Of a stretch of 64,000 nt of DNA, positions 21,219 through 64,000 are shown piece by piece (the stretch's first letter is position 1; every line of letters starts with the position of its first letter). The stretch is from a virus. Where the stretch lies: IMG/VR virus record IMGVR_UViG_3300024219_000002, positions 1,525 through 65,524 of that record, one strand, 5' to 3'. The translations under genes were made by a program, and so were the position numbers. The notes beneath the pieces are model-generated. The model was not told where the DNA came from and did no database searches. It saw nothing but the letters and a program-made list of their open reading frames with translations.

Positions 21219-21491
21219 ATGAAAAGCAAATGCGATTGCTGCGGATGGGAGGGCGAGCCAAAGACGACTTTCCCAAACATCCCCAGCCTGACACAGCGAC
21301 TTGACCCGGGCGGCGTCAGCGGGGAGGCAGAAGCCAATAAAGCGGATACATGGCTTGTCAACTGCGTCGCGGTGGCCGAGGCAGCCGAGGCGCTACACCG
21401 GGCGAATCAGCTCGAAATGGGCGCCGTGGAGATGAACAAGCGGTGGCACGCGCTGGAAAACGCGCTGAATGCGTGGAGGGCGGCGAAATGA
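21219..21491 (+). CDS. Hypothetical protein
   Basis: 90 aa; ATGA overlap with the next gene. Confidence 0.55.
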   Translation: MKSKCDCCGWEGEPKTTFPNIPSLTQRLDPGGVSGEAEANKADTWLVNCVAVAEAAEALHRANQLEMGAVEMNKRWHALENALNAWRAAK

Positions 21492-21796
21492 ATGCAAACA
21501 ACGAAGGCGACCGATTATCGGTCGGGATGAGCGACAGCCGACCGGAGAATGACTCAATGACCACGGAAACCTCAATGACGACGAGACGCACGAACGAAGC
21601 CGAGAGCGGGTCGGCTGTTCTGCTCCATCCCGTTGTTAGGAGACGGCAATCTTTCGTGGACTGCCTCACCGAAACCGGCTGGCGGCGAGGGAGCATCGCG
21701 TGGCCAGTCGAGGACGCCATAATCGTCGCCGCCGGATTCCGAGAGGAACACCCCAACTGGCTCGTCGAAATCAACCCGATAGAAGGAACACCATGA
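21488..21796 (+). CDS. Cassette gene; N-terminus read through an attC
   Basis: MNANNEG...SAVLLHPVVRR spans attC 21513..21641. Confidence 0.55.
   Translation: MNANNEGDRLSVGMSDSRPENDSMTTETSMTTRRTNEAESGSAVLLHPVVRRRQSFVDCLTETGWRRGSIAWPVEDAIIVAAGFREEHPNWLVEINPIEGTP
21513..21641 (-). repeat. attC-like site (solo cassette C, degenerate R')
   Basis: Minus strand: TCCTAAC-aacgg-GATGGAG...CTCATC-ccgacc-GATAATC. GTTAGGAGAC (21635-44) is the reverse complement of GTCTCCTAAC (22122-31). Confidence 0.75.
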
Positions 21797-22122
21797 TAAA
21801 AGCAACTAAAGGCGGTTCGGCGTTCACTGAGCCACCACCGAGTATGGACGTAAACGATCCTCGATGGCCGGCCGCATTCGCGGCGTGGGCGGAACGAAAA
21901 GCGAAACACTTCGGAATGGACGCAATGGAGATGATGGGGCGCGCCCTGGGATGCAACATGGAAGCCGACTCATGGAGAAAGAAGCGGCAGGCAGCACTCA
22001 GACACCAAGAGCAACACGCAAACGACATCTACGGCAAGACGCCGACAAAAAGAAAATGTCCGCATTGCGGAAGCACGACGCACCCGCCGGGCTGCTGCGC
22101 TCAAGATGGGCATGGCGGCTAG
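21793..22122 (+). CDS. Hypothetical protein with C-terminal CPHCG (inside cassette C)
   Basis: ATGA overlap; ends just before the cassette boundary at 22131. Confidence 0.55.
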   Translation: MIKATKGGSAFTEPPPSMDVNDPRWPAAFAAWAERKAKHFGMDAMEMMGRALGCNMEADSWRKKRQAALRHQEQHANDIYGKTPTKRKCPHCGSTTHPPGCCAQDGHGG

Positions 22123-22242
22123 TCTCCTAACCACCACACAATGAGCAATTCCCCCTCGCTCGGGACTGCATTTGGCTGGCAACAGCCCGGGCATGTGGTG
22201 TGCCTCTCCGTGTGGGGCGTGGGCGAGGTTTCCAGATTTGCC

Positions 22243-22271
22243 TTGCATTGGCATAACAAGCCCCCTATGAT
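22243..22271 (+). promoter_or_regulatory. Sigma70-like promoter
   Basis: TTGCAT-17-TATGAT, 10 nt before ATG 22282. Confidence 0.65.
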
Positions 22272-22281
22272 CCTTTCCACC

Positions 22282-22473
22282 ATGCCAGCGATCACCAAAT
22301 CCGACCTGCGCGAGCGATACCAGCGTTACGCGGGCAAGCACCCGTCGCCCATGTCCTTCAAGGCTTGGATGTATTTCCGGGAGCAGGGCTTGATCGGGGC
22401 GCAAAAGAGCACCACAAACCACAGCGAGGCCGGCAAGATCGGCATGGCTAAAAGATGGGGGAAGAAACCATGA
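22282..22473 (+). CDS. Small basic protein
   Basis: MPAITKSDL...SEAGKIGMAKRWGKKP. Confidence 0.6.
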   Translation: MPAITKSDLRERYQRYAGKHPSPMSFKAWMYFREQGLIGAQKSTTNHSEAGKIGMAKRWGKKP

Positions 22474-22718
22474 GTGAACCAAGAGACGGTGGGCCGGCGT
22501 TCCCAAGAAGCGGATTCGACATCGCGGAGAACTCTCTTAAATCCATAGCTGGCGAAGAGGGTATGTCCCTGCGCGACTGGTTTGCGGGGATGGCGTTGCA
22601 GGGTTTTTGCGGCATGTCGGACACTGAAGGAAACTGGACTTGGACTGTTGAAGAAGCAGCCAGCACCGCCTATCGCTGTGCCGACGCCATGCTAAAAGCC
22701 CGGGAGGTTCAGCCATGA
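22470..22718 (+). CDS. Conserved phage protein (DGGPAFP...GMSLRDWFAGMALQG family)
   Basis: Characteristic motifs including AYRCADAMLKAR. Confidence 0.8.
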   Translation: MSEPRDGGPAFPRSGFDIAENSLKSIAGEEGMSLRDWFAGMALQGFCGMSDTEGNWTWTVEEAASTAYRCADAMLKAREVQP

Positions 22719-23000
22719 ATAAGTTTTGGCGTTGCGCTAACCGGAGCGCATTGATTGCTTGGATTGGTTTCATCATGGCATTCTCTCATCGGGGAGAGTG
22801 GGTTTTCTCTGTAATCGCCGCGTGCCTACTTGTCGCCAATGTTTGGTATTACTGGAGGGGGAAACCATGATGCTAGGATGCGTCCTTTTGATCGCCGGTC
22901 TGATGGCAGCCTATGGCATGGCGTGCGTGCGGGATGAGCGGCAGCTTTTCAGGACTGCATCGGAATGGCGCAAGACGCGACCCTACGCAATCCTGCTGAA

Positions 23001-23201
23001 ATGAACACCCGTCGCCTTAAGTGCGCCCTGAAAGAGTTCGCGCTGCGCCTGTGCTGGCTCGTAGCTGCCATCGTCTCGCTATCGGGCGTCTTTTTCGGGT
23101 CATGCGTGCTCTACCAAGTGTCCAAATGGGGCTTCCTAATCGGCATGTGTGCCTTGGGGCTTGGGTTTGTGTTTTACACATGCTGGCAGGACTCAGAATG
23201 A
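23001..23201 (+). CDS. Small two-TM membrane protein
   Basis: Two hydrophobic segments; one of a run of small overlapping ORFs at 22715..23201. Confidence 0.5.
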   Translation: MNTRRLKCALKEFALRLCWLVAAIVSLSGVFFGSCVLYQVSKWGFLIGMCALGLGFVFYTCWQDSE

Positions 23202-26922: not shown

Positions 26923-27377
26923 GAGCCATAGACAGCGTTCCAAAGTGTGTCAACTGCGCGCACGCCCGCGTTCCAGAGAAGTTCCCGTGGTACTTCTGGC
27001 TGATCCCGCCGTACTGGCTAGTCGTTCGGCGCATGTGGACCGTCCGGGTCGCTGTTTCAAGCAAAGGAAGAAGAACCATGAGAACCATAGCTGGCGCGAT
27101 AAAACTCACTGCCTTGGCGCTTCTGCTGGCGTCGCAAGTTTTCTTCGTAAAGTATGTCATCCTGCCGCGGGATAGAGAGCGCGCGGAACAGGCATCGGTC
27201 AAACCCGGTCAGGTCTGGGAATATAAATGCTCGCTCCCGTTCCACGAGAATGACGCGCCTTCGCTGCGGACGGTGCTGGAGGTAAGGGATGGATTCGTGA
27301 AGTACAAATCCAGCAGAGGGTGGGAGAACGATTGCAGCGTCAGAGTTTTTGTCTCTGACTCAAAGCTGGTGAAATGA
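26919..27377 (+). CDS. Membrane-anchored hypothetical protein (alternative start 27078)
   Basis: TM segment plus VKPGQVW domain; last gene of the + strand block. Confidence 0.55.
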   Translation: MRAIDSVPKCVNCAHARVPEKFPWYFWLIPPYWLVVRRMWTVRVAVSSKGRRTMRTIAGAIKLTALALLLASQVFFVKYVILPRDRERAEQASVKPGQVWEYKCSLPFHENDAPSLRTVLEVRDGFVKYKSSRGWENDCSVRVFVSDSKLVK

Positions 27378-27432
27378 TCGGCACTCAATGCCACTAAATG
27401 CCATTCCGGAGGGCAAAAAGAGACAAAACTCT

Positions 27433-27669
27433 TCAGCACCGTATTAGCGGCTCGCCTTGATACGGAGGATCGTTCTTCTTCGGCGGTTTTTTGCCGTCGT
27501 GGATGGCTTGTAGTTCTTCCAAATCTCCGCCATACGACGGGTCAATCTCGTGCTTGAACACGAGCGCCAGATGCCGCTTCACCATTTCGGTTTGCGGTTT
27601 GTCGAGTTCCGAACAGTTAGAGATTTCAAAGTGGCCCTGAAGCCAATAGCAAAAGTCTCTTGATGTCAT
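27433..27669 (-). CDS. Conserved phage hypothetical protein
   Basis: MTSRDFCYWLQGHFEI motif. Confidence 0.75.
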   Translation of the reverse strand: MTSRDFCYWLQGHFEISNCSELDKPQTEMVKRHLALVFKHEIDPSYGGDLEELQAIHDGKKPPKKNDPPYQGEPLIRC

Positions 27670-27878
27670 GGCTTACCTACCTTCACGGTGCCGTCGGATG
27701 TCACTTCGACGTAGTTTGTCCCGCTACCAACTCGCGTAAACTTGACCGTGCCGTACATGGTCGGGACATTGACGGATACAATGGCGGGGTCTTTGGCCAG
27801 CGCGCCGACGAGCTTCGTTATGTTGGTTGAGCTGCAGCCGCAGAGCGCGACGGCGACGAGTGCGAGGATTGACTTCAT
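27666..27878 (-). CDS. Small lipoprotein (possible o-spanin-like)
   Basis: MKSILALVAVALCG|C lipobox. Confidence 0.65.
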   Translation of the reverse strand: MKSILALVAVALCGCSSTNITKLVGALAKDPAIVSVNVPTMYGTVKFTRVGSGTNYVEVTSDGTVKVGKP

Positions 27879-28294
27879 GGTTTGTTGGTTGTGGTCAGGC
27901 TTCCGAAATAAATGTAATTGTTGGTGAGGGAAACCAACATATTCGTTCCGATGGAGTTCGTCGCATAACCGTTAAGCGTGCCCCACCGTGGTTCTCTCGG
28001 CACATCGTTCGTTGCGACCGGCGCCCAGGCATCCTGCTTGCGAAACTCAACCTCTGTTTCGTTTAGAATCTCCTCGTCCGAAACCTCTCGCGGCTTCCCG
28101 TTCCAATCGAACGTCGCCTTGGTAACTCTTTTAATAGTGGTCTTAACCCACTTCTGCTGCGGGTTTGTGTGTGGAAAATACGGCAACTCCAAGGTGTAGG
28201 AATCACCCGCATTCTGGAAGGCAGGGAGTGTCGGGAAACGCTCCGTGACATTGGTGACGAGTGATACGATGATTGAGGCAATGAGGTTTGTCAT
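27875..28294 (-). CDS. Exported Thr-Asn-rich hypothetical protein
   Basis: Hydrophobic N-terminus; many TN dipeptides. Confidence 0.6.
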   Translation of the reverse strand: MTNLIASIIVSLVTNVTERFPTLPAFQNAGDSYTLELPYFPHTNPQQKWVKTTIKRVTKATFDWNGKPREVSDEEILNETEVEFRKQDAWAPVATNDVPREPRWGTLNGYATNSIGTNMLVSLTNNYIYFGSLTTTNKP

Positions 28295-41451: not shown

Positions 41452-42006
41452 TCAATCTGATATACGAACGCCTGTCGCATAATCATTGTTCAGCGGATAA
41501 GGCGTCGCGTCACCTCGCAGGTAAAGCGGGTGGGCTGGCGAGCCGTCCTTGTTTTGTTTCAGGCAATAAAGGTGCGGAAGTAGCGCCATCACCTGCTTGT
41601 CTCTGCCCATGTGGTTGCCGTCCTTGCCCCACGCCGCGATTACGATTCCCGCGCCTTGCGAGAGTGTTTTGAGCGTGCGGTCATTGTCCGGCCCGATTGG
41701 GTCTTTTGCGGCCATCATGTCTTTCGGCTGAGTCGCACGGAACGCAAAGAGGTTCACCATGCAGAGTCCGCCGTAGTTCCACCGCTTCGCGTAGCCAACG
41801 CATTTGCGGATTGTTGGGTCATCTCGCGTCTCGTCCGCCGTTGATGGATTCAATCCCACGAACATGCAGTATGGTGCATCACACCATCGCCGCCACAGGT
41901 CGTATCGGTAGAGTCGGCACGGCGAGAGAACCGCTGAACAAGGCGCTGCATGGACCGCCGCATGAGCGCCCAGCGCGAGTTCGAGAGTCATTGGTGCGGC
42001 GTCCAT
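41452..42006 (-). CDS. DUF1643-family protein (cassette A1)
   Basis: YRYDLWRRW..FVGLNPSTA..DDPTIRKC..NLFAFRAT..AWG..HPLY. Confidence 0.85.
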   Translation of the reverse strand: MDAAPMTLELALGAHAAVHAAPCSAVLSPCRLYRYDLWRRWCDAPYCMFVGLNPSTADETRDDPTIRKCVGYAKRWNYGGLCMVNLFAFRATQPKDMMAAKDPIGPDNDRTLKTLSQGAGIVIAAWGKDGNHMGRDKQVMALLPHLYCLKQNKDGSPAHPLYLRGDATPYPLNNDYATGVRISD

Positions 42007-42023
42007 GAGCTTATTCGTTAGGG
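41933..42023 (+). repeat. attC site A1
   Basis: GCTGAAC-aaggc-GCTGCAT...ATGAGC-ttattc-GTTAGGG; CCGCTGAAC pairs with GTTCAGCGG at 41488. Confidence 0.88.
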
Positions 42024-42048
42024 CGCTTAGTCACTCCGCGCTCCGTGT

Positions 42049-42348
42049 TCACTTTCCTTTCGGTCGTTTATCCATCCCCTTCTCAGTGAGAATAGCCGCG
42101 AGGTCGTCCACATGCAGGCAGTCACACATACACGCTCCGGCTGGTTGCTGCTGGATAGGCGCGATGTGGCCGTTGCAGTAATCGTTTCCCGGAGTCGCAT
42201 CGTAGAGGACTCCGACCGCTGTGATTACAGGCCCGTCCGTTTGGAGCTGGACCACCTTGTCTCCGTTCTTTGCTTCTCTGCCGTTTCTGTAGTGCATAAT
42301 TTGACGCTCCCTAACAAGTTGCTGAAGACCGACGGCGGGAGCGCCCAT
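42049..42348 (-). CDS. Hypothetical protein (cassette A2; alternative start 42297 MHYRNGREAK)
   Basis: Conserved-looking HYRNGREAKNGD..CNG..CLH motif. Confidence 0.7.
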   Translation of the reverse strand: MGAPAVGLQQLVRERQIMHYRNGREAKNGDKVVQLQTDGPVITAVGVLYDATPGNDYCNGHIAPIQQQPAGACMCDCLHVDDLAAILTEKGMDKRPKGK

Positions 42349-42419
42349 CAGTTTCCAGTTTCGGTTTGCAAACGAAAGTCATTGGTCAATCGCCGCCGCG
42401 GCTTAGCGCGTTGTTCTGC
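42309..42419 (+). repeat. attC site A2
   Basis: CCCTAAC-aagtt-GCTGAAG...CTTAGC-gcgtt-GTTCTGC; R'' pairs with GTTAGGG (42017). Confidence 0.88.
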
Positions 42420-42420
42420 G

Positions 42421-42885
42421 TCATTTCCAATCGCCAGGGCGCTGCGTTTCCCCCTTGCCGCAAATGACGCACTCTCGATAGCGATTATCGTCAAGTCCAG
42501 TTGTCAGTCGCGGAGAAGAGTGCCACTTGTGAAACCCTTTGGCAGCGCAATATGAGCCGTTCTCGACGAAGTTCACAATGGAGACCCCATTCGTCGTCCT
42601 GAATGCACCTTTATCGTCGTACGCGCGCAGGGTGTTTGTTTGTGCCGTCCACAATTGATTCGTAAACCGGGAGGCGTGGGTGTTTGTGTTAAATGGCTGA
42701 TAGGGCACTGGAATTGTTTTTGTGATTCTTCCGTCTGCGCTTATCTCGCAAACAGCGACCGGCCCTTTCCATCCATCATAACTGTTGGACCAGACCATAC
42801 TCCAAGTTTGTGCGTTGATGCAGAACAAGCCGATGCAGGCGACGGCCAGAGCCGTCGCAGTTCCGAGTGTGAATTTTAATGTCAT
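42421..42885 (-). CDS. Exported protein (cassette A3); signal peptide encoded by the attC
   Basis: MTLKFTLGTATALAVACIGLFC lies largely within attC A3. Confidence 0.65.
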   Translation of the reverse strand: MTLKFTLGTATALAVACIGLFCINAQTWSMVWSNSYDGWKGPVAVCEISADGRITKTIPVPYQPFNTNTHASRFTNQLWTAQTNTLRAYDDKGAFRTTNGVSIVNFVENGSYCAAKGFHKWHSSPRLTTGLDDNRYRECVICGKGETQRPGDWK

Positions 42886-42927
42886 AGCTTTTGGTCGTCA
42901 GGCCGCGCCTGATCTTTTTCGTTAGGA
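42820..42927 (+). repeat. attC site A3
   Basis: GCAGAAC-aagcc-GATGCAG...CTGATC-tttttc-GTTAGGA; R'' pairs with GTTCTGC (42413); R' overlaps the scaffold stop codon. Confidence 0.88.
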
Positions 42928-45709: not shown

Positions 45710-46333
45710 TTAATCACTGTTCGGCATTTCTACGTCGCTGGCAATTTCGTTGCCCCACGACGCCCAGCCGTGCCGTTTCCGCCGGGCAAACATTTCGAGA
45801 TACGGGCCGGGAGATACAGACTCCACGACCGTTTGAAATTCTTCGGGCTTCTGCGAGTGCCGGCCACGAGGCCAGCCCCACCAGTTCCGGTCACATCGGT
45901 TTTTCCACGACAGCTTGCCACGGCGACAAAACAGAATCGGCTCGACGCACGGCACGAACGCGCCGCCGAGTCCAAGCCCAATCGGTTGCTTGAGCCAGTA
46001 GAGCATCGTTGACGGCTCGAAGCCCCAAGCGCGGGCGATGTCATAGGTCGCTTCGATGTAGCTGTTGATTGTCCAGATGTAGCAGTGAGCATCTTTGTCA
46101 GCCGGGATTTTCAGCGCGGCGATTTGCTCCACGCTCATCGTCGGATATTCTAGCGGCACACTTTTCAGGACGCGCTCTTGAGTTCCGAAGCCTTGGCTTC
46201 CGGGACTTTCGAGGCGGTTCACTTCCCACGTCGGATCAGCTACGACACACCGAAATGCCGAACAATTCGATGGAGAGAACGGCGCGATTGCGTCTCTCGC
46301 GAAGTCGAACGTCATGGGCGCGCCGTCTCTCAT
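45710..46333 (-). CDS. MT-A70-family adenine methyltransferase (cassette B1)
   Basis: VVADPTW, YPTM, AWGF, HSQKPEEF, LEMFAR..GW..WGNE. Confidence 0.88.
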   Translation of the reverse strand: MRDGAPMTFDFARDAIAPFSPSNCSAFRCVVADPTWEVNRLESPGSQGFGTQERVLKSVPLEYPTMSVEQIAALKIPADKDAHCYIWTINSYIEATYDIARAWGFEPSTMLYWLKQPIGLGLGGAFVPCVEPILFCRRGKLSWKNRCDRNWWGWPRGRHSQKPEEFQTVVESVSPGPYLEMFARRKRHGWASWGNEIASDVEMPNSD

Positions 46334-46347
46334 CTCAGTCGTTACCC
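46257..46347 (+). repeat. attC site B1
   Basis: GCCGAAC-aattc-GATGGAG...CTCATC-tcagtc-GTTACCC; GAAATGCCGAAC pairs 12/12 with 45719-45730. Confidence 0.9.
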
Positions 46348-47415
46348 GGCCAGCGCCAGCCCTCGGGTTGTCGAGCAGCTTTCATCGGACAGTTTCAGAT
46401 AGTCGGCGTTTACGTCGTTGAGCCACGCCCGCCGTCCGTTGGCGATGGCTTCATGCCCGGTAGTTCCGCTGCCCGCGAATGGGTCAGCCACAAGGTCGCC
46501 GGGATTCGACCATGAAAGTATCAGGTCGCGGGCCAGCCATTTCGGCATCATCGCCGGATGGTTGAGTCGCTCGCACATATCCTCTTGGCCGCGAGTTTTC
46601 CCGCGCCATACGTTGCCGCGCATTCCGTACTCGGCGGTGAGTTTCTTTGAGCGCACGGACTTCGTGCCGTCGCGTTCTGTGTAAGTGTTCACGCCGAGAT
46701 TTCCCACGCACCCGGCAGTTGCGTTTTTCTTGTCCTTGAGCGGGTTGAAGCAGCGAGGCTGTCCCTTCGACATCACGAACACGTACTCGAAAACTTGGTG
46801 GTATCGCACGCGCTCCGGGTGACTGAAGTTCAGCTTCTCGTAGATCATCGTGTCGTGGACACGGAAGCCGCATTTCGCGAGGTGGATTTTCTGTTTGCAG
46901 CTTGTGAGCGTTTCAGAGCCGTTCACCACTTCATCGCCGACGTTCCAGCACAGCACGCCACCATCGCACAGCACTCGGTACAGTTCGCGAGCCGTGCCTT
47001 CAAAGTCCCACGAGTGCCCGCCATACGTGCGCAGGTTGTCGTACGGTGGACTTGTCACCACGAGTTGCGCGCAGCCATCCGGCATCTCCGCGAGCGCAGC
47101 CACAGAGTCTTTATTCGAGAGCGTTAGACAATGGCTAGCTAATCGTCTTTCGACATTCTGATACCACACGTTAGCCCGCTTATTCCATGCGGTGAGAGCA
47201 GACATTCCGCTATTGCTTCTGAACACGTCTGATTCCGCACCACATACGATGCAGTTGACCCGCTCGGAGCATTTGTCGAGTCGGAGCTTTGCCGCTCCAC
47301 CGCAGAACGGGCACGGAAGCGGGCTAACCATGCGCTGAAGCGCAACCGGAGGCTTGCTTTCAGCCTTTGCGACCACGGCTTGCTTGCAATCGGATGTCGC
47401 GGTCGCGTCACTCAT
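46342..47415 (-). CDS. N4/N6 DNA methyltransferase fused to a Lar-like Zn finger (cassettes B3+B2)
   Basis: PCPFCGG..CIVCG..AWNKR, then VTSPPY, HPA, DPFAGSGTT. Confidence 0.88.
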   Translation of the reverse strand: MSDATATSDCKQAVVAKAESKPPVALQRMVSPLPCPFCGGAAKLRLDKCSERVNCIVCGAESDVFRSNSGMSALTAWNKRANVWYQNVERRLASHCLTLSNKDSVAALAEMPDGCAQLVVTSPPYDNLRTYGGHSWDFEGTARELYRVLCDGGVLCWNVGDEVVNGSETLTSCKQKIHLAKCGFRVHDTMIYEKLNFSHPERVRYHQVFEYVFVMSKGQPRCFNPLKDKKNATAGCVGNLGVNTYTERDGTKSVRSKKLTAEYGMRGNVWRGKTRGQEDMCERLNHPAMMPKWLARDLILSWSNPGDLVADPFAGSGTTGHEAIANGRRAWLNDVNADYLKLSDESCSTTRGLALAG

Positions 47416-47435
47416 GGCTGACCTTTGCGTTGTGC
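47322..47435 (+). repeat. attC site B3 (imperfect right arm)
   Basis: GGCTAAC-catgc-GCTGAAG...GTTGTGC; AAGCGGGCTAAC pairs 12/12 with 47170-47181. Confidence 0.75.
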
Positions 47436-47698
47436 TGCGCGCGGTCGTTAAGTTCTTGTGCCAGTGCGTCCCATCTATTTCGGAAGTGAGGATGTTGATG
47501 CTCCCACGCCTCCATAAACTTTAATGACGAATACCCGCATGAGTCCGCCCATATTTTGTGCAATTCCTGGCCTGTTAACGGCGCAGCACAACAATTCCCT
47601 GATGCCAACTTCGCTCCGCTTGTCGGCACAGTTACGGTTTCGACATGCGGAAGTGCGTGAGGCATTCCATAGTCTGGGTATTCTGCGCTCAGTGGCAT
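47408..47698 (-). CDS. Hypothetical protein (cassette B4)
   Basis: Start inside attC B4. Confidence 0.6.
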   Translation of the reverse strand: MPLSAEYPDYGMPHALPHVETVTVPTSGAKLASGNCCAAPLTGQELHKIWADSCGYSSLKFMEAWEHQHPHFRNRWDALAQELNDRAQHNAKVSHE

Positions 47699-47714
47699 AG
47701 GTCAGTCGTTAGCC
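47586..47714 (+). repeat. attC site B4
   Basis: GCACAAC-aattc-CCTGATGCCA...TGGCATAGG-tcagtc-GTTAGCC; 12/12 pairing with 47429-47440. Confidence 0.88.
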
Positions 47715-48091
47715 GACTCTTGCGTGGCGGCACAGTCAGCAACCATCATGCAGAAGTTGGCGACATCGGCGCACTCATCCGCCAGTTCTTCGGCGTCCTT
47801 GAAGTCTATGCGGTCATCGCTGCCCTGAGTGAAGCACTGTTGCACTTCTACCGTTTCATCAAGGATGCGCTCAACTAGACTCCACGGGTCATCTTTCAGC
47901 CATCCATCTCGGTCGCCTTTATGTCGGTTCTGCGAGAGCTTCGCCTCCATCCGCGCCGCGAATTTCAGCACATGAAGTAGCGTCGGGGAGTCGGCTAACA
48001 ACCGCATGGAGTCCAACGCGGCGAGCGTTTCTGATTTTTGAGTGTCGGTTTGCATGGATTGGGATTCAGGATTTCGCGCCGCGTGGCTCAT
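47702..48091 (-). CDS. MazG-like / all-alpha NTP pyrophosphohydrolase-like protein (cassette B5)
   Basis: KLSQNRHKG..W..ETVEV..ECADVANFCMM. Confidence 0.65.
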   Translation of the reverse strand: MSHAARNPESQSMQTDTQKSETLAALDSMRLLADSPTLLHVLKFAARMEAKLSQNRHKGDRDGWLKDDPWSLVERILDETVEVQQCFTQGSDDRIDFKDAEELADECADVANFCMMVADCAATQESAND

Positions 48092-48105
48092 GCGGAGCGT
48101 TGGAC
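47993..48105 (+). repeat. attC site B5
   Basis: GGCTAAC...CATGGAG...CTCATG...GTTGGAC; 12/12 pairing with 47708-47719. Confidence 0.88.
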
Positions 48106-48350
48106 TGACGCCTTCGTTTGGTGATCTCTTGGAGTATCAGTGTGCAGGCAGAGCCGCTAATAAAGTTTACGCTCCCTACAATAACCGCCCCGAATCGCTC
48201 GTTATCTACATGGTCGAATGCGAACCACGCGACTCCGATGAGGCTTTGGAAAAAGAAGAATAATATCAACAGTTCCCACACAGCCCAACCACTTCTTGGA
48301 GCGGACGTGCTGGGCGCACTCAGTTTTTCCGTAACGTCTGGATTGTTCAC
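48066..48350 (-). CDS. Two-TM membrane protein (cassette B6)
   Basis: GTG inside attC B6; two hydrophobic segments. Confidence 0.6.
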   Translation of the reverse strand: MNNPDVTEKLSAPSTSAPRSGWAVWELLILFFFFQSLIGVAWFAFDHVDNERFGAVIVGSVNFISGSACTLILQEITKRRRQSNAPHEPRGAKS

Positions 48351-48386
48351 GGTTTTCTTTCCACGCCGCTCAAGGCGGCGTTCGGC
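48283..48386 (+). repeat. attC site B6
   Basis: GCCCAAC-cactt-CTTGGAG...CTCAAG-gcggc-GTTCGGC; 8/9 pairing with 48099. Confidence 0.85.
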
Positions 48387-48637
48387 CAACTTTGTTCTAT
48401 GGCGGCATCGGCGAGAGCGAAGCCGTCGAAGTGGTCGAGTGCGCTTGCATTTTCCGCATCGAATCCGGCAGTGAAAGCGGCATCTATGATTCGCGCGATT
48501 TCCTTTTTGAGAGTTTCTTTGGCAGTGGACGAGTTGGCCGAACCAGTCGCTGAACCCGCAACTGGAGGCTCGCTCTCAGGTTTGGCGAATCCGCTATCCC
48601 ATTTTGCCGCTGCCTGCATTTGTTTCATCGTAGTCAT
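48347..48637 (-). CDS. Hypothetical protein (cassette B7)
   Basis: Start inside attC B7. Confidence 0.6.
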   Translation of the reverse strand: MTTMKQMQAAAKWDSGFAKPESEPPVAGSATGSANSSTAKETLKKEIARIIDAAFTAGFDAENASALDHFDGFALADAAIEQSWPNAALSGVERKP

Positions 48638-48673
48638 TCGACGCCTCCAGTGGGGTTAGCTTGGTCGTTAGTC
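48537..48673 (+). repeat. attC site B7
   Basis: GCCGAAC-cagtc-GCTGAAC...GTTAGC-ttggtc-GTTAGTC; 12/12 pairing with 48380-48391. Confidence 0.9.
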
Positions 48674-48925
48674 GGCGTGATACCACTCGATGAAGGCAAC
48701 GAAACACACGAGAAAAATTCCTAGGCCAATTACCCCAATCAGCATCACCCATCCATGCAGCACCCAAACCAAGAGGAGCAACGCAGCGGCAATAGCCATT
48801 ACGATTCGGTTCTTGCGACGGCGACGACTAACAAGGCGCTGGACACGAGCCGGAGGCTTGCCTCCGGGCGGACCTTGGTAGTCTTCAGCTACGAACTGTT
48901 CATCTTCTTCGGATAGGTATTTCAT
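48668..48925 (-). CDS. Two-TM membrane protein (cassette B8)
   Basis: ATG and GGAGG RBS inside attC B8; stop TAA lies in the previous R'. Confidence 0.65.
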   Translation of the reverse strand: MKYLSEEDEQFVAEDYQGPPGGKPPARVQRLVSRRRRKNRIVMAIAAALLLLVWVLHGWVMLIGVIGLGIFLVCFVAFIEWYHAD

Positions 48926-48961
48926 TTTGTCGCCTCCGGTCGGTCAGCTTTGTCGTTATGC
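48826..48961 (+). repeat. attC site B8
   Basis: GACTAAC-aaggc-GCTGGAC...GTCAGC-tttgtc-GTTATGC; pairs with GTTAGTCG (48667). Confidence 0.9.
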
Positions 48962-48971
48962 GGTTTAAGAT

Positions 48972-49175
48972 TCATGTCCATCTCGTCAGGCAGAGCCACA
49001 GAAACCCATACTTACAGCAGGGACACTGAATGAAGTATCCGCCTTGCGATCCATCGTCCCATGAGGCTTCCTCGCGGTTCACGGAGACGCGACAGTTGCA
49101 GCGTTTGCACGTCCCGAAAAGAACATCTTCATTCTTCGGCGCTTTGCCTTTACGTATGATTTTCAAACTCCGCAT
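48972..49175 (-). CDS. Small Zn-ribbon protein (cassette B9)
   Basis: CKRC..CPCC; ATG lies in the R'' box GCATAAC. Confidence 0.65.
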   Translation of the reverse strand: MRSLKIIRKGKAPKNEDVLFGTCKRCNCRVSVNREEASWDDGSQGGYFIQCPCCKYGFLWLCLTRWT

Positions 49176-49440
49176 AACAAATCGGTGCAGGCACTTTCAC
49201 TGTGAGTCCGAGTGCGTGGATTCTGCGCACCAGTTCACGGAAGTTGCCGCGTTGCTTTGAGACAATGAAGGATACCATTACGGCGTTGTCCAGCTTCCAC
49301 AGGTATCCGTCATATTTGTCGCTCGTAAAGCCGAGGATTTTTGCTCTTTCAGAGTCGAGATGAATGATCCCTGAGTCGAGATGAATGATCCCTGCTTTAG
49401 CTCCGCGCTTCCGGGCTTCGTCAATCTCGTCCTCAGTCAT
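49150..49440 (-). CDS. Hypothetical protein with a 7-aa tandem duplication
   Basis: GIIHLDS x2 (21-bp duplication 49352-49393); runs into the truncated attC. Confidence 0.55.
   Translation of the reverse strand: MTEDEIDEARKRGAKAGIIHLDSGIIHLDSERAKILGFTSDKYDGYLWKLDNAVMVSFIVSKQRGNFRELVRRIHALGLTVKVPAPICYAEFENHT
49172..49194 (+). repeat. Truncated attC (R''-L'' only)
   Basis: GCATAAC-aaatc-GGTGCAG; CCGCATAAC pairs with GTTATGCGG (48955); no right arm found. Confidence 0.7.
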
Positions 49441-55795: not shown

Positions 55796-57555
55796 GCGGC
55801 CTCGGCTGAGTATTCCACACGAGCGTAAATGCGATTCACTAACTGGGCACGCTTTTTCCAACTGTCCTTCACAACCATGCGTTTGCCTTCCATTCCCATC
55901 GGGTTGAATCCGAACCGTTCCCGGAACAACGCCAACAGAATCAGCGCGGCATCCCCGTCGTCTGGTGAGTGGCCTATTCGCACCTTCATCTCCTCTTTCT
56001 TCTCCGCGCGCATACGCAGGCCATCCCCGCCTTTCACCGTTTCGTAACGGCGTTCCGTCCAATCCCGGGCCGTCTCCTTGGGTAAGCCCTTGATCTGGTC
56101 GGACTGGACATATTCCACGCCGGCAAACCAAAGCTCGGTGACGCGGTTGGCGAATGCCTTGTTGCCGGGGCGACGGTCCTTCACTCCAACCACTCTATCA
56201 GATGCCGCACCGCCAAACTGTATCGCCACGATCTTAGGCGACCAGACTTCGGCCAGCAACGCACCAAAGGGAAGTCCTCCGCCTGATGCGTCGAACGCGG
56301 CATTTTCGGGAGGAATCCCCAGGGCAACGCATTTATCTCGGAATAGTTTAGCGATCTGCAAGGACCGGCTTTCGTCTTTTTTCCTGACATCCTCGCGCAA
56401 CTCGATTCGTTGGGTATATTGCAGGGTTTGTTTTCCGTCGGTGCTCGTTCCCATGTCGCCAACATACATCATGGCCTTGTCACCGCCTGTTGCAAAGGCT
56501 GGATCAAGAGCGGCACCGCGCGTCGGCACAGACTGCCAGCGAACGGTTTCATGCACGCGCCCGCGCAACAGGTCGGATTCGGAATAGATTCGGTTGGCGT
56601 CAGCCTCAGGGCATGGGAACGACCGGCACATGCGCCAGAATCGAACGGAATGCTCGCCGCCTGGTCCTTCGCGCTGCTCCTTGTAGTGGCGCGTGCTGTA
56701 AATGCCGGGATACTTCTCCTCGCCAAGAAGCACGTTCGGGCTTTTCAGTCCGTCGAATCGAAGGCAGATGCCGCGGTCGGTTTCCCAGCGGTCGGTTTCC
56801 TCTGACACGCTTCCCCAGCCTGTCTTTGGAGTGGCGAACTGGCCAAACGGATCATAAACGCTGGCAAAGTTTCCAAGAGCCATGAATTGAAAGAACGGGT
56901 TCACGACAAGGTTTGATTCAGCCGCCTCCACAAGTGCCGGCGACAATTCGGGCATCTCGTCACAGATGAACAGCACGCGAGCGGTGTGAATGCCGATGAG
57001 CTTCCCGATGTTTTCCTTTAGCTTCGCCCGGTCGCCAGGGATCAAAAACATGCCCGCCTCGCTATCCGGCCAGATTTTGATTCCGTCGGTTGTTCGTATT
57101 TTGCAGGTCGAGCTGGTCAGCTTTCCGGGAAGCAATGGCCGTCCGTTCTTGTCGCTCGCCGCCATGAAATACTCCTCCACGGCTCCCCAGATACGCTTGC
57201 GTGAATCACTCAAACTGGTGGACGTGAAAAGGACAATCGTCTTTCCTGGTTGACAGAGCCAGTTGACGATTCCCCACATTGCAGCGAAGCGACTTTTCCC
57301 CGACGCGGCCGCGCCGCTGAGGGCCAGTCTTTGGTTCTGACATGACTCGGCCAACATGAGTTCATTCCATGGATTCCACTGGAAATGACACTTGGATTTT
57401 GCGCCCCAGAAATGGCGCACGATGTTCTTGAAGTGATAGGGACGATTGTCGGGATCGCCGCCCATCGCAGCGGTGCCCATGCGGAAGGCGAGAAGTTCAA
57501 CGTCCAGATCGGTCAGCCCTTCGTCCCAAATCAATCCATAGCGGGTGATGGCCAT
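55792..57555 (-). CDS. terL: Terminase large subunit
   Basis: Walker A GAAASGKS, Walker B FICDE, ALGN coupling motif, nuclease LDPAF..GD, FDASG, SPDDGDA. Confidence 0.9.
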   Translation of the reverse strand: MAITRYGLIWDEGLTDLDVELLAFRMGTAAMGGDPDNRPYHFKNIVRHFWGAKSKCHFQWNPWNELMLAESCQNQRLALSGAAASGKSRFAAMWGIVNWLCQPGKTIVLFTSTSLSDSRKRIWGAVEEYFMAASDKNGRPLLPGKLTSSTCKIRTTDGIKIWPDSEAGMFLIPGDRAKLKENIGKLIGIHTARVLFICDEMPELSPALVEAAESNLVVNPFFQFMALGNFASVYDPFGQFATPKTGWGSVSEETDRWETDRGICLRFDGLKSPNVLLGEEKYPGIYSTRHYKEQREGPGGEHSVRFWRMCRSFPCPEADANRIYSESDLLRGRVHETVRWQSVPTRGAALDPAFATGGDKAMMYVGDMGTSTDGKQTLQYTQRIELREDVRKKDESRSLQIAKLFRDKCVALGIPPENAAFDASGGGLPFGALLAEVWSPKIVAIQFGGAASDRVVGVKDRRPGNKAFANRVTELWFAGVEYVQSDQIKGLPKETARDWTERRYETVKGGDGLRMRAEKKEEMKVRIGHSPDDGDAALILLALFRERFGFNPMGMEGKRMVVKDSWKKRAQLVNRIYARVEYSAEAA

Positions 57556-60500
57556 TAACGGGTGGTTGTTTTCCTCTGCTCGTAATTCTGCAAGCCCATC
57601 CCGAAGATGGACAGCAACGCAAAGATTGTCCCGCGTTCGATTCCCTGCTCGCGCATCGTTGAGTAAATGTCCTGAAGGGACAAAGGCACAAGCAGGTTTG
57701 AAGCTGTTGACTCGGGTGTGACCGGCTGTCCAACCACGTCTTTACCAGTCAGAAGGTTTAGCCCTGTTCCAATCGCAGGGCTTAGTTTTGAACGAAGGAA
57801 TCTTGCAGTCACGTCGGCAGCATTGGGGGCGCCGTAGGGCACTTTTGGTCCGCGTATAGGAACTATGTTGCCTTTGCTGGTTTTGGTTTCCCCTGATCCA
57901 AGGCGTGAAAGCAGAACGGTGTTCTGGAGGAGTCCAGCCATCGGGTCAATTCGTGTGTTGCCATACCGGAGTTTTCCGAAGTCAGCGGAGCGCGGGTCTT
58001 GCTCAATCGTGGCGCCATCCATTTGAGCCAATCCGTAAACAACGGCGGCGCCAGCCAAGAAGCGACCGTACTCCTTCGCCATCAGCGTTCGGGTTCTCGC
58101 GCTTCCACGATAGAGAGGTTGGCCGGCGAGGAGTTGAAATCGGCTGGCGACGTAGCGGGGTGCAAAGAATACCGTGTTGAGTCCGACCAAGGCGTTTTCC
58201 TTCATGCCCAGATTGCCGCGTCCGGTGGCCACGTTGACGAAATTGGCGATGGCGTTTACTTCGGTCGGCGTAAGCTCTTTACCATCTCTGGCCAAGGAAT
58301 TTGACATTGCGTCGAATGAGTCGGCTCGGAGCTTGTTCAGGAATGTGACGTACGCTCGCTGAGAACTCGCCACTACTTTTCCAGGAATGGTAATTGGAGA
58401 AAGCGCAATCTTACCGGCTATCCCCATGTTCTCGGACAGCTTTGGAATCTTGTCCACCCATCGGGACATGTACGCTTCTTCCATCTGTGAGAGCTTGTGA
58501 CCGTGCTCGGACAAGTAGAGCTTTCCTTGCTGATAAATCGGGTAGTTCTTGCGAGCTAAAATCTCTTGGTCAACCGCATGTTGTCCCGCCTCGGAACGGA
58601 AAGCCCGGAACATGGCTGGGAAAGATTTGGCAGCCCGGATCGGGTGGGCGAAGGCTATGAATCCACCCTGACGAAGAACTCCAGAAAAGTCGGAACTCGT
58701 CACCACGGCTCGGGACAGGTTCAAAACCTCTCCCGCTGTGTCGAACACCTTTCTCGGAAGGCTTCGGTTGGCAAGCCGGTCTTTCATCAGAGCCTCATGC
58801 CATGCAACCTTGGCCTTGGACATTTCGTAATGTAGCCGGTTCGCCTCCGAATCCATTGGGATAATTCGTTTCTGCTTTTTGGAGAAGTCTCCACGCGAAA
58901 GTCTGTCTTTTAGGTCAGCCGTTTGCCTTGCCAGCCTTGCCTTGAGTCCTTTCAACGCGATGGCTTCTGGATCGCGCTCTGGCTTGGGTTGTAATCTCTC
59001 TCGGATGAATTTCCGTTGCTCCTTCAACTCATCAAGCCGCTTAATTCTTTCAGCATTTTCAGGTGTTTCAACCTTCTCGGTCTTTCCTTTTGGAAATACG
59101 GTTTCGTGTTCTATTTGCTTCTCAAGCTCGTCAATCCGTTTATCCAGAACCGCCGTCCTGCGTTGTGCCTCGACATCCAATGGTTGAGGGCTTGTCTGAA
59201 TCAACTCCCGGGCATATTCCCGCTCCGCCTTCAAAGCCTCAATTCTAGCCTTCGCCGCTTCAAGTGCCGGGCTTGTTCCCAAGAACGGCTTCTTTCCAGC
59301 CGGGAATATCTCTCCGGTCTTTAGCTGACGTTCGAGTTCTGCAATCTGTCGAGTAGCAACTTTTTCGGCCAATGCCAATCGCTGTTCGTCAGTCAATCCC
59401 GGCTTCTTGAAAATCTCCTCATGCTCTGCCTTGAGCGCCTCGTATTCCTTCTTCATCGCTTCCAACTGGGGGTCGGTTGGCGATGGCGTCTTGGTCTTTA
59501 CCAGCTTCTCCCGCGTCTCAATCTCCTGCTTCAAATCTGAAATTCGGTTTCGGTAATAGGTCTTGCGCGCGGTCAATGCGGAGGCAAGTTGAGTCGCAGG
59601 ATCAGTGACGACAAAGCCACCCTTCTTCTTGGCCTCGTTCACCAATTTTATTAGTCGTCGTTCCTCATCACTTGGAGAACGCCGTTCGACACCTGTCTTT
59701 TGTGGTGCCTGTCCAGCCTGCATGTCCTCCAGCTTGGCGACCTGCTGCATCTGGCCTTTCAGGTCGCGCAACTGAACGCTGATTTCATCCTTGGTCAGTT
59801 GCTTGAAGTCTCCATAACCGCTGATGGCGTCCATCGTCTCGCGCCGGGTGAATGACGGGTCAATGCTTTCCAGAACGCCGTGCACGGCGTCTATGAGAGC
59901 CTCGCGTTCTCGTATGCCAGTCTCCACAAATGCGCGAGCCAGTTTTTGAACAAGCGGCGTAATTTCATCGCGCTTTCCGGAGTCAATACGCTCTTTGATT
60001 TTGGTCGTGGCTTCGGCTTCTTTGGTGGCTGCGTCTTTGGGGGCACGCTTGACACGCTCGGCTGTTATTTTGCCGTGCTTTTTTTCGAGCTGTGCGCTTT
60101 CGGTTTCAAGTTTTGCTTCACTGGCTTTTCGGATTTCGTCCAGATGGGGTTTGATCCAGTCGCCCACGTCCCGGATCATGGCTTCAGACCACTTGGCAAG
60201 TTCGACCACGCCGCGGGTCAGCTTGGCCGCGCCGATGATTGACAGATCGGCAAGTTCGGTCGGATCAATGCCTGCGGTGAGCCGTCCTCGACGCTCTTTG
60301 ATTCGAGCCAGAGCCGAATCCGCCTGCTTCTCCATGTAGGTCGCAAACTGTTCGGCAATCTTCAGGACTCTCGGGTGATATGGCGGTTGCTCCTTGCGTG
60401 CCGCCTGCTCAACTTCGTCCAGCGCGTCTTGAACGGCCCGCTGCGCTTCCTTGGCTGTCGTGGCGGCAACGTAGTCGTCGTAAGCCTTCTGAGTCTCCTC

Positions 60501-63017
60501 AATCTTCTTGTTGAGCCTGACGACTTCGGAACGCTCTGCGTCGGTCAGCGGAGCACCACCCTTTGCCGCACGCTTCTCCAGTTCCATTTTGGCCAGCGTG
60601 AAATCCTCGTAAGCCATCATTTTTCGGGCGTTGAGTCCTCGCCCAGTCGCCGTGCCGACCTTCTTGTTGATATTGTAAAGGTCAAGCAACTGGTCGCTCA
60701 GTCCGGAGACGCGCGCCTTTTCGGTGGCAACAGCCTCCATTCGTCCATCCTCGTACGCTTGCGCGAGATCGCGTGTCGCCTTGCCGTACTCGTTCTGGAG
60801 GTCAATCTGGCGGTGGAGAAGTATGGCGTCCTCGATGTCTGTGACGGCATGAGGATTCTCCCGAAGTTGGTTTATCAGCGATTGTTGGTACTCCGGGTCA
60901 TGGTCAATCAGGGCCATGGCGCGATCCCAGACTTCTCCGAAACTGCGCTTGGCCGGTTGCATGGCGGGCGGAAGTCCACGCTTGGCCCGCTCCTTGTCAA
61001 CAACGGCATTTTTGATTGACGTTGCCAGTTCTGGACTTCGCTCGAATTCAGACGGGATGGCGCCACCCATGCCGGGACCGACTTCGGCGGGTTCAGCCTT
61101 CTCTTGAGATTTGACCTGCTGCTGAACCCATTCCCTGTCAGCCTTGGATATGTTTCGCACCTTTACCTTCGTGGGTTCGGTGCTTGAAGTCGGGATTTTC
61201 TTTGCACGCTCTAAAACTTCAGAAAGGGCCTCTTTTGTGTTCCAAATTCTAAATGTTCCATCTCCTGGAATATCAATGGTGACTTTCTTGCCGTGAATTT
61301 CAAGCGCCTCCTGAATCTCCTTGGAGTATTTCGGGACATCCTCGCCATTTCTTTTAACCGTCTCGCTCATGTGCTCCCCAAGCGTGGATTCGTGGTAAAG
61401 CGTCTTTCCTTTCACGTCCACGCCGTAAGCGATCTTCAGCGGCTCCTTGCCGATTACATCCACCATTGGTTTTGCTTCCTCAATCGCCTTCTCCAACCTA
61501 TCAACCAGCTCCGATTTGACTTCCTTTGCTGACCGCGCGCCTTCGGTTTTGGCTACGGATTTGACTTCTGCTTCGACCTTGTCGACAGCGGCAGACGGAG
61601 TGGCTTGTTTTTCGACTACTTTCTTTGTCGTCTCAGATTTGGCGGGAGTGGTAGGAACAGCGGCGGTCGGTTCCCCACCAACGGGTGTCAGTGGCTCGAC
61701 CGCCGCCTCCGTCCTTTGTGCATTGGGTTGCTCGACGGGAGCGGAAGGTGTTGGTTCTTCAACCGCTGGCTCTGCTTTCTCCTCAGTCCTCAGTGGCGCA
61801 TTTTCGACATCGGCGGCAACAGGCGCTTTGACTTCCGGCGAGACTTCGGCCTGTCCGGGTGCATTGGGTGTCCCGGATGGCGCGAGTTGTAGGTCATCGC
61901 TGCGATCCGCTTCGCCTCCTTCAATGGCTTTCCCCGGCTCACGTAACTGTCCCGTATCCGTTCGTATTGTTTTGGCATTTGAAACCTCCGTGGTTGTTTG
62001 TTCAATTACTGCAGCTGTCTGCGGCGCGAGAATCTGTAAATCGGGTGAGACGGCAATAAAAGTCTCTGGCCGTTCGACTTGTCGGGTTCTGGTGGATTCA
62101 CCGCCCGTCAATTCTCCCTGCCTGACCTGACGCTCCATTTCCTTCGCGGCAATATCTAGCGCCTGATTTTGAGTAGGCAGCAGAGTCTTGCCTGAGGTCG
62201 CCGCCACGCCGGGTAAAGAAGTCGGCACTTGTTCAGCCATCTTGGTTGCGATGTAGCTTCCAATGACAACCCCGGTGACGGCCTTGGCGATATCGGCTTT
62301 CGTGGCGTCGGGATCGCTGGCGACTTGTTGCAGGTTCTTGATGGACTCAGGAACGCTCTTAATTGCCCCTCCAGCCATGACTGCCTTGCCGCCTGTCTTG
62401 AGCAACGCCAACTCTGGCCCAGCGGCAAACGCAGGCAGGGACGAAATCATTTCTCCGGTTGTAAACCCAGACGCGATTTCTTCAGCGCCTTTGGCAACTC
62501 CCGTTATCGGGTTGTCTGGTCCGGTCAGCGTGCCTCGCGGCATCCCGGGAGTCAGCTCCTCCACCATCTGAACTGGCTGCTGAATCAATCCCTCAAGATT
62601 GGCGCCATTGTATTCGGAAACAACTGGACGGCCAGCAATGGCGTTGACCGTCTTGTTGATTAGGTTGACAGGATTGGCAAGGTTTCCAACTACCTCCGCG
62701 CCTTGATTTCCAAGAAACCCAAGCGTCTTTTCAAGCCACACTGGACTTGCTTCCGATTTAGCTTCTATCTCCTGCTTGATCTTTGCCCGTTTCGCCGCTC
62801 GTTCCTCTCCGAGCATTTCTATTTGGCCTCGGATGCCAACATTGGTTGCGGCGCGCGCCGTCTCGGAAAGATTGATCGCCTGAGAAACCGCACCAAGTCC
62901 ATGCCTGACGTTGTTCCTCTGAATCAGCCTCGGAACTTCATCCGAAATGTCCCGCTCCGACATCGCATCGGGAAATTCAACGATGCCAATATCGGGAATT
63001 TCAACTTCGGTTGGCAT
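57555..63017 (-). CDS. Repeat copy of the large ejection-type protein
   Basis: Same as 1745..7207. Confidence 0.7.
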   Translation of the reverse strand: MPTEVEIPDIGIVEFPDAMSERDISDEVPRLIQRNNVRHGLGAVSQAINLSETARAATNVGIRGQIEMLGEERAAKRAKIKQEIEAKSEASPVWLEKTLGFLGNQGAEVVGNLANPVNLINKTVNAIAGRPVVSEYNGANLEGLIQQPVQMVEELTPGMPRGTLTGPDNPITGVAKGAEEIASGFTTGEMISSLPAFAAGPELALLKTGGKAVMAGGAIKSVPESIKNLQQVASDPDATKADIAKAVTGVVIGSYIATKMAEQVPTSLPGVAATSGKTLLPTQNQALDIAAKEMERQVRQGELTGGESTRTRQVERPETFIAVSPDLQILAPQTAAVIEQTTTEVSNAKTIRTDTGQLREPGKAIEGGEADRSDDLQLAPSGTPNAPGQAEVSPEVKAPVAADVENAPLRTEEKAEPAVEEPTPSAPVEQPNAQRTEAAVEPLTPVGGEPTAAVPTTPAKSETTKKVVEKQATPSAAVDKVEAEVKSVAKTEGARSAKEVKSELVDRLEKAIEEAKPMVDVIGKEPLKIAYGVDVKGKTLYHESTLGEHMSETVKRNGEDVPKYSKEIQEALEIHGKKVTIDIPGDGTFRIWNTKEALSEVLERAKKIPTSSTEPTKVKVRNISKADREWVQQQVKSQEKAEPAEVGPGMGGAIPSEFERSPELATSIKNAVVDKERAKRGLPPAMQPAKRSFGEVWDRAMALIDHDPEYQQSLINQLRENPHAVTDIEDAILLHRQIDLQNEYGKATRDLAQAYEDGRMEAVATEKARVSGLSDQLLDLYNINKKVGTATGRGLNARKMMAYEDFTLAKMELEKRAAKGGAPLTDAERSEVVRLNKKIEETQKAYDDYVAATTAKEAQRAVQDALDEVEQAARKEQPPYHPRVLKIAEQFATYMEKQADSALARIKERRGRLTAGIDPTELADLSIIGAAKLTRGVVELAKWSEAMIRDVGDWIKPHLDEIRKASEAKLETESAQLEKKHGKITAERVKRAPKDAATKEAEATTKIKERIDSGKRDEITPLVQKLARAFVETGIREREALIDAVHGVLESIDPSFTRRETMDAISGYGDFKQLTKDEISVQLRDLKGQMQQVAKLEDMQAGQAPQKTGVERRSPSDEERRLIKLVNEAKKKGGFVVTDPATQLASALTARKTYYRNRISDLKQEIETREKLVKTKTPSPTDPQLEAMKKEYEALKAEHEEIFKKPGLTDEQRLALAEKVATRQIAELERQLKTGEIFPAGKKPFLGTSPALEAAKARIEALKAEREYARELIQTSPQPLDVEAQRRTAVLDKRIDELEKQIEHETVFPKGKTEKVETPENAERIKRLDELKEQRKFIRERLQPKPERDPEAIALKGLKARLARQTADLKDRLSRGDFSKKQKRIIPMDSEANRLHYEMSKAKVAWHEALMKDRLANRSLPRKVFDTAGEVLNLSRAVVTSSDFSGVLRQGGFIAFAHPIRAAKSFPAMFRAFRSEAGQHAVDQEILARKNYPIYQQGKLYLSEHGHKLSQMEEAYMSRWVDKIPKLSENMGIAGKIALSPITIPGKVVASSQRAYVTFLNKLRADSFDAMSNSLARDGKELTPTEVNAIANFVNVATGRGNLGMKENALVGLNTVFFAPRYVASRFQLLAGQPLYRGSARTRTLMAKEYGRFLAGAAVVYGLAQMDGATIEQDPRSADFGKLRYGNTRIDPMAGLLQNTVLLSRLGSGETKTSKGNIVPIRGPKVPYGAPNAADVTARFLRSKLSPAIGTGLNLLTGKDVVGQPVTPESTASNLLVPLSLQDIYSTMREQGIERGTIFALLSIFGMGLQNYEQRKTTTR

Positions 63018-63021
63018 CGGG

Positions 63022-63994: not shown

Positions 63995-64000
63995 AACTGG

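Follow-up and report, generated by a model that had tools for sequence, protein, structure and literature searches.

Integron cassettes are commonly thought of as bacterial cargo carried beside an integrase, and in the usual layout their genes lie sense, not antisense, to attC. In attC sites the R'' box follows the consensus RYYYAAC, and the GTT of the R' box defines the crossover point. Phages of the T4 type possess promoter-stem-loop 'mobile regulatory cassettes', in which promoter-plus-hairpin repeats occur without R/L boxes, G|TT junctions or chain complementarity; shared with the locus studied here are small phage genes that are bounded by repeated hairpins and shuffled as modules.

Two published systems come closer. 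Qi et al. 2023 (PMC9892861) describe phage CALINs, in which virulent or uncharacterised phages carry attC sites without an integrase and DNA methyltransferases as cargo, and report that IntI1 recombined five of six tested phage attC sites, including sites from virulent phages. The phage analysed here likewise has attC sites without an integrase and methyltransferases in the cargo; the differences are that the study, which lists 17 CALINs, asked for two or more attC sites in each element, that the TJE1 and PH101 cassettes are oriented as in bacterial arrays, and that the terms 'single attC' and 'SALIN' are absent from its text. Loot et al. (bioRxiv 10.1101/2022.09.11.507474) report that cassettes are inserted by IntI1-3 at numerous genomic positions, termed attG, with the consensus 5'-GWT-3' and a cut after the G; single cassettes without an integrase are named SALINs, CRGM is a hotspot motif for IntI1, and in some clones some of the genome-inserted cassettes were excised again. 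Our locus shares with SALINs and attG a cassette with one attC, the absence of an integrase or other att site nearby, a GWT-type junction and an expression that would depend on neighbouring transcription. SALINs were described in bacteria, however, and attG was defined with IntI1-3 in E. coli, whereas our locus is carried by a phage, has genes that run antisense to attC and matches CRGM at three of four positions.

The element in question is, on balance, probably a single integron-type cassette (SALIN) in the early operon of a phage, likely placed there by a host integrase at a non-att G|AT. CALINs, SALINs and attG are already published; the present locus is a single cassette carried by a phage, in which an attG-type junction is combined with genes inverted with respect to attC. 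Among the publications searched, as judged by title and abstract, none deals with single cassettes in phages.

The window, that is the whole stretch of DNA that was analysed, comprises 64,000 bases of an uncultured soil phage whose IMG/VR record is 65,524 bases long. The genome unit is about 55.8 kb, because the first 8,190 bases recur at the end of the window (55,811-64,000) with 8,185 identities, only 5 of 8,190 positions being different. Terminal copies with five differences look like a concatemer or population assembly; the IMG/VR class is linear. Between about 20.6 and 27.4 kb the + strand codes for, among others, an HNH endonuclease, a phage metallopeptidase, and AAA_24 and exonuclease VIII-like PDDEXK proteins, a set that fits an early or replication-recombination operon, and every early gene flanking the cassette has this orientation. 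The 65,524-base record yielded no integron integrase, tyrosine recombinase, serine recombinase or Y1 transposase. TIGR02249 and PF00589 gave no matches in the same record, which therefore does not qualify as a complete integron, where intI and attI stand beside the cassettes. The tRNA and Rfam scans gave no match.

Two chained arrays of attC-like sites occupy the late region, array A at 41488-42927 with three sites and array B at 45719-49180 with at least seven, located by reading 46.3-49.3 kb and by a scan for AAC...GTT hairpins. All sites are on the + strand: A1 (41933-42023), A2 (42309-42419) and A3 (42820-42927) in the first array, and B1 (46257-46347), B2 (47322-47435), B3 (47586-47714), B4 (47993-48105), B5 (48283-48386), B6 (48537-48673) and B7 (48826-48961) in the second. 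They follow a single plan, in which 5 nt separate an AAC-ended box from a left arm that has one-base bulges, a variable loop leads to the right arm, and a spacer of 5-6 nt precedes a GTT-led box; A1 and B1 are 82% identical. The sites are linked by a chain rule: a stretch of 7-12 nt ending in AAC is the reverse complement of an upstream GTT-led stretch, the G of which coincides exactly, within the arrays, with that of the GTT box of the preceding site. Integron cassette arrays have the same boundary rule. The GTT box that opens each array, at 41488 in A and at 45719 in B, lacks a hairpin. The array genes lie on the minus strand, opposite to the sites, with Pfam matches to MT-A70, N6_N4_Mtase plus Lar, and DUF1643, and the start of an antisense ORF lies within all ten array sites as well as within the solo site described below. 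Just past array B, a 21-nt unit is present in perfect tandem duplication (window 49352-49393).

Three covariance models were used. R1 was built from A1 and B1, and R2 from A1, B1, A3 and B4 only, with the solo site left out. R3 was built from nine Vibrio sites only. The Vibrio sites come from MK672802 (L008), a Vibrio phage with a piece of the V. anguillarum chromosomal integron, as described by Qi et al. 2023 (PMC9892861). This record has intI on the minus strand (27091-28053) and cassette CDSs, mostly on the + strand, over 28.3-41.1 kb. R2 gave 22 matches there at E<=10, ten of them full-length (126-128 nt). All ten full-length matches fall on the cassette-sense (+) strand inside the cassette array at 28.8-41.0 kb, those examined lie directly 3' of a cassette CDS, and there is no full-length match in the 28 kb of phage genes. 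Since the R2 scores on the Vibrio sites are individually weak (7.8-9.8 bits, E 2-8), this evidence rests on position, strand and full length. In the reciprocal direction, R3 gave 11 matches at E<=10 on our phage, seven of which are array sites, B7 included. Its top six, A2 (27.1 bits, E 1.7e-4), A3 (19.1), B5 (17.9), B3, B4 and B1, are all on the + strand, with ends that agree with R2 within a base.

Because the two models detect each other's sites in both directions, the phage family can be called attC-like. Box order, spacers and bulge positions coincide between the family and Vibrio attC: both read R'', 5-nt spacer, L'' bulged after three and six pairs, loop, L', spacer and R' GTT, over a length of about 126 nt. 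The V. anguillarum sites differ in that sequence identity is low, that the Vibrio genes are sense to the top strand and that the Vibrio model misses the solo site: R3 gave no match to it at E<=10 genome-wide, and at most 0.4 bits in a local search of 451 bases. The solo site is attC-like through its membership in the family, as shown by the phage family model.

This solo site lies on the minus strand at 21513..21641 (129 nt) and is matched by R2 over model positions 1-91. The initial annotation had placed an attC at 21641..21513 on the minus strand and proposed a covariance-model scan of that strand as a check; a model built without the site returned its full length with the same ends and strand (25.9 bits, E 8.7e-5), the E-values of R1-R3 being rough and the bit gap to background large. 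In the R2 alignment the site reads, on the minus strand, as an R'' box TCCTAAC (21641-21635), a 5-nt spacer AACGG (21634-21630), an L'' arm with bulged bases (21629-21611) followed by the loop, an L' arm (21541-21526), a 6-nt spacer CCGACC (21525-21520) and an R' box GATAATC (21519-21513), which is GATTATC on the + strand. The unpaired R/L spacers expected of attC are therefore present, with 5 nt and 6 nt. In the L-stem 15 of 16 pairs are standard and the bulges fall at the family positions; extrahelical bases follow three and six pairs on the 5' arm, where the model also places them in the Vibrio sites. The R-box has two standard pairs out of three, the exception being an A.A mismatch caused by the GAT. 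As to the boxes themselves, the AAC and the three pyrimidines of R'' fit the consensus, its first base being T and not a purine. R' departs from G|TTRRRY in beginning with GAT, whereas all nine array sites in the alignment have GTT. The left box is also contained in a perfect 7-1-7 palindrome (GACCGAT T ATCGGTC, window 21509-21523), which spans the G|AT junction.

The R'' box extends outwards into a 10-mer with a partner 490 nt away, on the side predicted by the family rule. The sequence GTTAGGAGAC at 21635-21644 and GTCTCCTAAC at 22122-22131 form a 10/10 inverted match, so that the second copy, the upstream junction box (22122..22131), reads GTTAGGAGAC on the minus strand; it sits between the stop codon of the second cassette gene (TAG, 22120-22122) and the next gene start at 22141. 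The ten-base match of the initial annotation thus stands, with both strings in place and the partner on the side and at the distance given by the chain rule. To the right of this box neither R2 nor R3 found a credible hairpin; an R3 match at 22251-22331 (9.3 bits, E 3.6) was rejected as a hairpin, the stem being absent on reading by eye.

Could such a site be an imperfect inverted repeat in a coding region that happens to lie beside an unrelated 10-mer match? Taken one by one, its features are modest. The DNA fold of 21513-21641 (-21 kcal/mol) has a z of only -1.37 against shuffles and is unremarkable, the repeat lies inside an ORF, and 10-nt inverted pairs spaced by 50-600 bp are frequent, 60 being present in the unique genome against 32 +/- 7 in shuffles; three other GTT-led pairs of at least 10 nt occur in the unique genome, without a hairpin. 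Set against this, an R2 scan of the unique 55,810 bases, on both strands and with filters off, produced ten matches below E 0.002, namely nine array sites, five of them outside the model, and the solo site with its exact ends. Scores near that of the solo site are those of B3 (27.5 bits) and B5 (22.2 bits), and once sites and their reverse strands are set aside, the best match reaches 9.7 bits. The 10-mer, moreover, falls on the R'' box. Ten of the 11 family sites have a partner of 7-12 nt, while among the genome's 1956 10-mers ending in AAC just 16 have such a partner, mostly the true pairs. Across ten sites 97.8% of pair cells are standard, with compensatory change at 14 of the 16 L-stem pairs, in an alignment that was fitted to the model and leans towards structure; 0 of 500 shuffles reach the family's pairing level and slid controls give 28-42%. 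Compensatory changes are also seen in a related site of other contigs, described below. The two-site model R1 did not find the solo site, and MAFFT alone gave no useful alignment of the sites. Membership of the solo site in the phage's attC-like hairpin family is confirmed, and it is because of this membership, not of the 10-mer pair or the fold alone, that we regard the site as real; coincidence is exceedingly improbable.

The cassette proper extends from 21519 to 22130 on the minus strand (612 bp). On that strand it starts with the TT at 22130-22129, which follows the G at 22131, and its last base is the G of R' at 21519; R'' extends outwards as GTCTCCTAAC, the reverse complement of the stretch that begins with the G at 22131. 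This corrects the segment 21513-22131 of the initial annotation, the cassette proper being counted from G|TT to G|AT. Within it lie two + strand genes. Gene A (21557..21796), whose conserved core is formed by the last ~50 residues, from RRRQ/FVDCL on, has three candidate starts: ATG 21488, which lies outside the cassette in an ATGA overlap with the upstream stop, ATG 21527, and ATG 21557, which has GGAGA at 21544-21548, 8 nt upstream. The attC loop and right arm code for its leader. Gene B (21793..22122; 109 aa) overlaps the gene A stop by an ATGA, and its own stop abuts the boundary box; its C-terminal tail is Cys-rich and ends in GCCAQDGHGG. The earlier statement that two + strand ORFs are enclosed holds for the presence of two genes in the cassette, but depending on the start chosen (21488, 21527 or 21557) gene A begins before or inside the attC. 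Seven homologues of gene A besides the window's own protein were found (E 1e-46 to 3e-9), as were six matches of gene B (E 1e-67 to 8e-5), the best of which probably represents the window's own cluster; Pfam, PHROG and the Atlas gave no lead for either gene. The flanking early genes in the ORF list, 21219..21491 on the left and 22141..22473 on the right, are both on the + strand outside the cassette and have no Pfam or PHROG match.

Relative to the arrays the layout is mirrored: the minus strand carries the site and the + strand the genes, which run in the direction of the early operon. The rule of the initial annotation, that genes run antisense to attC and with the local operon, holds at all three loci and on both strands. 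The top strand designated by the model is the one on which Vibrio cassette genes are sense. We considered the opposite assignment, in which the coding strand is the attC top strand and the hairpin belongs to an upstream cassette. It was rejected because the extension of the left box has no partner, because the arrays open with hairpin-less GTT boxes and because the bulge geometry fits the Vibrio top strand. There is one hairpin per content at the solo locus, as at array ends. R2 reveals no other site in the early region, the nearest being A1 at 41933, about 20 kb away. With coding sequences, one attC and neither an integrase nor another att site nearby, the locus has the composition of a SALIN.

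Relatives were sought for both the cassette and its surroundings. No relatives of gene A with DNA context were found among viral contigs searched by protein and by alignment, or among metagenome and genome contigs searched by alignment; for gene B a single-protein locus search gave only tail matches in L002 and L003, and an alignment search of viral contigs gave none. A locus search with the flanking genes gave matches of 13-15 residues or nothing, blastn against phage records gave no match, and no relative with an empty site or without the cassette appeared in the contig, phage-record and read searches. Two near-identical soil read sets, X1 and X2, and a diverged freshwater set, X3, yielded short contigs, and none of those listed has a joint that skips the cassette. 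One X1 contig passes the right boundary unchanged, and no X1 or X2 contig spans the left boundary. Farther along the early region, X1 and X2 contigs have a 21-nt insertion after window 22991, an in-frame length variant within ORF 22965-23201. A block of about 40 nt at window 22563-22603, within ORF 22455-22718 (PHROG 2201 and a transcriptional-regulator PHROG), is widely shared, being present at high depth in many unrelated X3 contigs with loose ends on both sides.

The proteins related to gene A differ mainly at their beginnings. The equivalent of start 21527 is called in P0002 and P0008 and that of 21557 in P0003; P0004-P0006 have the gene A core from V|RRRQ on with other leaders, and P0007 joins the core a few residues further in. 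P0008 carries the leader encoded by the solo attC, followed by an unrelated body, with the break at GTT 21635-37. It is explicable because attC subtypes are shared between cassettes, as they are between A1 and B1, and an exchange at the GTT 21635-37 box would also fit the break. A Dam-like methylase as the body of P0008 was rejected, as it has no Pfam support and no similarity to the window's MT-A70 gene. P0010 and a 392-nt X3 contig that is 98% identical over gene B have different sequence upstream of about 21808. This joint between genes A and B shows that the cassette segment is shaped by other recombination as well, and in relatives its content is not an indivisible unit. The Cys-rich tail GCCAQDGHG(G)* of gene B (window 22060-22122) is found again at L002 4001-4066 and L003 4001-4057, two otherwise unrelated IMG/VR contigs in which it closes small zinc-ribbon-like ORFs, and also in P0014; as a cassette boundary in L002 and L003 it was rejected, since it is a short conserved peptide module that no AAC box follows.

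A pattern search of JGI metagenomes recovered the attC subtype of the solo site, with both boxes intact, in L010 (part of a 39 kb contig), L012 and L013. Family sites in these contigs, scored by R2 at 28-57 bits, lie at L012 370-495 and 3437-3526, L010 129-254 and 541-614, and L013 633-758 and 1045-1118, and antisense ORFs start in the site, as in the phage. The site at L012 370-495 (38.5 bits) has an intact GTT in R' and an 18-nt identical arm block in common with the solo site, with compensatory changes in the L boxes.

The origin of the solo cassette turns largely on its two junctions, G|TT at one end and G|AT (21519|21518, minus strand) at the other. The initial annotation had taken R' as decayed. 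The sequence GATAATC is indeed present, but decay is one reading only, since G|AT is also the product of an attC x GWT insertion: it fits the 5'-GWT-3' consensus of attG, with cleavage after the G. Insertion at a GAT leaves exactly G and AT behind attC, and therefore no decay has to be assumed; on our analysis of the junction, non-att GWT insertion would fit the odd R' at least as well as decay does. If the cassette is instead the last survivor of a regular att site or of a longer array in the early region, its R' GTT would have mutated to GAT. A single T-to-A change suffices for this, the related subtype in L012 has retained GTT, and the CRGM motif expected at +6 to +9 of an attG target reads CGGT, a match at only three of four positions. 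Yet the early region contains no other site, half-site or chain-rule pair, and a mutation is unnecessary where G|AT is a normal product of GWT insertion; we thus consider a surviving remnant unlikely.

Another possibility concerns the whole family rather than the solo site. The hairpins might be attC mimics owned by the phage, structured gene-start elements with a ribosome-binding site and start codon in the loop, around which genes are shuffled by phage recombination functions or by template switching. The antisense ORF starts in all ten array sites and the solo site would agree with this, as would the inversion of every gene relative to canonical cassettes, the joints elsewhere in relatives, and a phage that lacks an integrase and encodes AAA_24 and exonuclease VIII-like PDDEXK proteins. 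Against gene-start elements of this kind speak the reciprocal Vibrio model test, which recovers ends, strand, spacers and bulge positions, and the joints placed exactly at G|TT with 7-12 nt of chain complementarity, the signature of circle insertion at a fixed cleavage point. Broadly similar attC sites from phages, furthermore, were recombined by IntI1 (Qi et al. 2023, PMC9892861). We judge phage ownership of the hairpins, together with shuffling by phage functions or template switching, to be quite improbable.

Under the preferred reading, the cassette most likely entered double-stranded phage DNA as a circle, inserted at a non-att 5'-G|AT-3' by an integron integrase of the host. The insertion would leave a hybrid R' box, G|ATAATC, whose pairing with R'' would be incomplete and which would probably be a poor excision substrate; that the cassette is now fixed, as the initial annotation proposed, is plausible. 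Because a ribosome-binding site and a start for gene A would lie in the attC loop, the cassette could bring complete genes and be expressed by read-through transcription.

Judging from this locus, such cassettes may settle in phage genomes without being part of an array. The G|AT junction, together with the inverted layout common to this locus and the two arrays, supports repeated insertion into phage DNA at more than one kind of target, and it suggests that orientation is filtered by phage transcription on both strands. A broader scheme is possible, though we hold it to be doubtful: the phage lineage would draw on a pool of 'inverted' cassettes, which host integrases insert at GWT anywhere in the phage genome, and only insertions co-oriented with transcription would survive. 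With a 129-nt site and a 612-bp cassette, the locus offers a small and defined substrate for asking whether host integrases act on infecting phage DNA. Under the broader scheme, the attC hairpin would also serve as a translation start, with ribosome site and ATG in its loop, and the solo cassette would record an attC x attG event that took place naturally in a virus. Integron recombination would then serve phages generally as a way of shuffling genes among themselves, early genes and anti-restriction genes alike.
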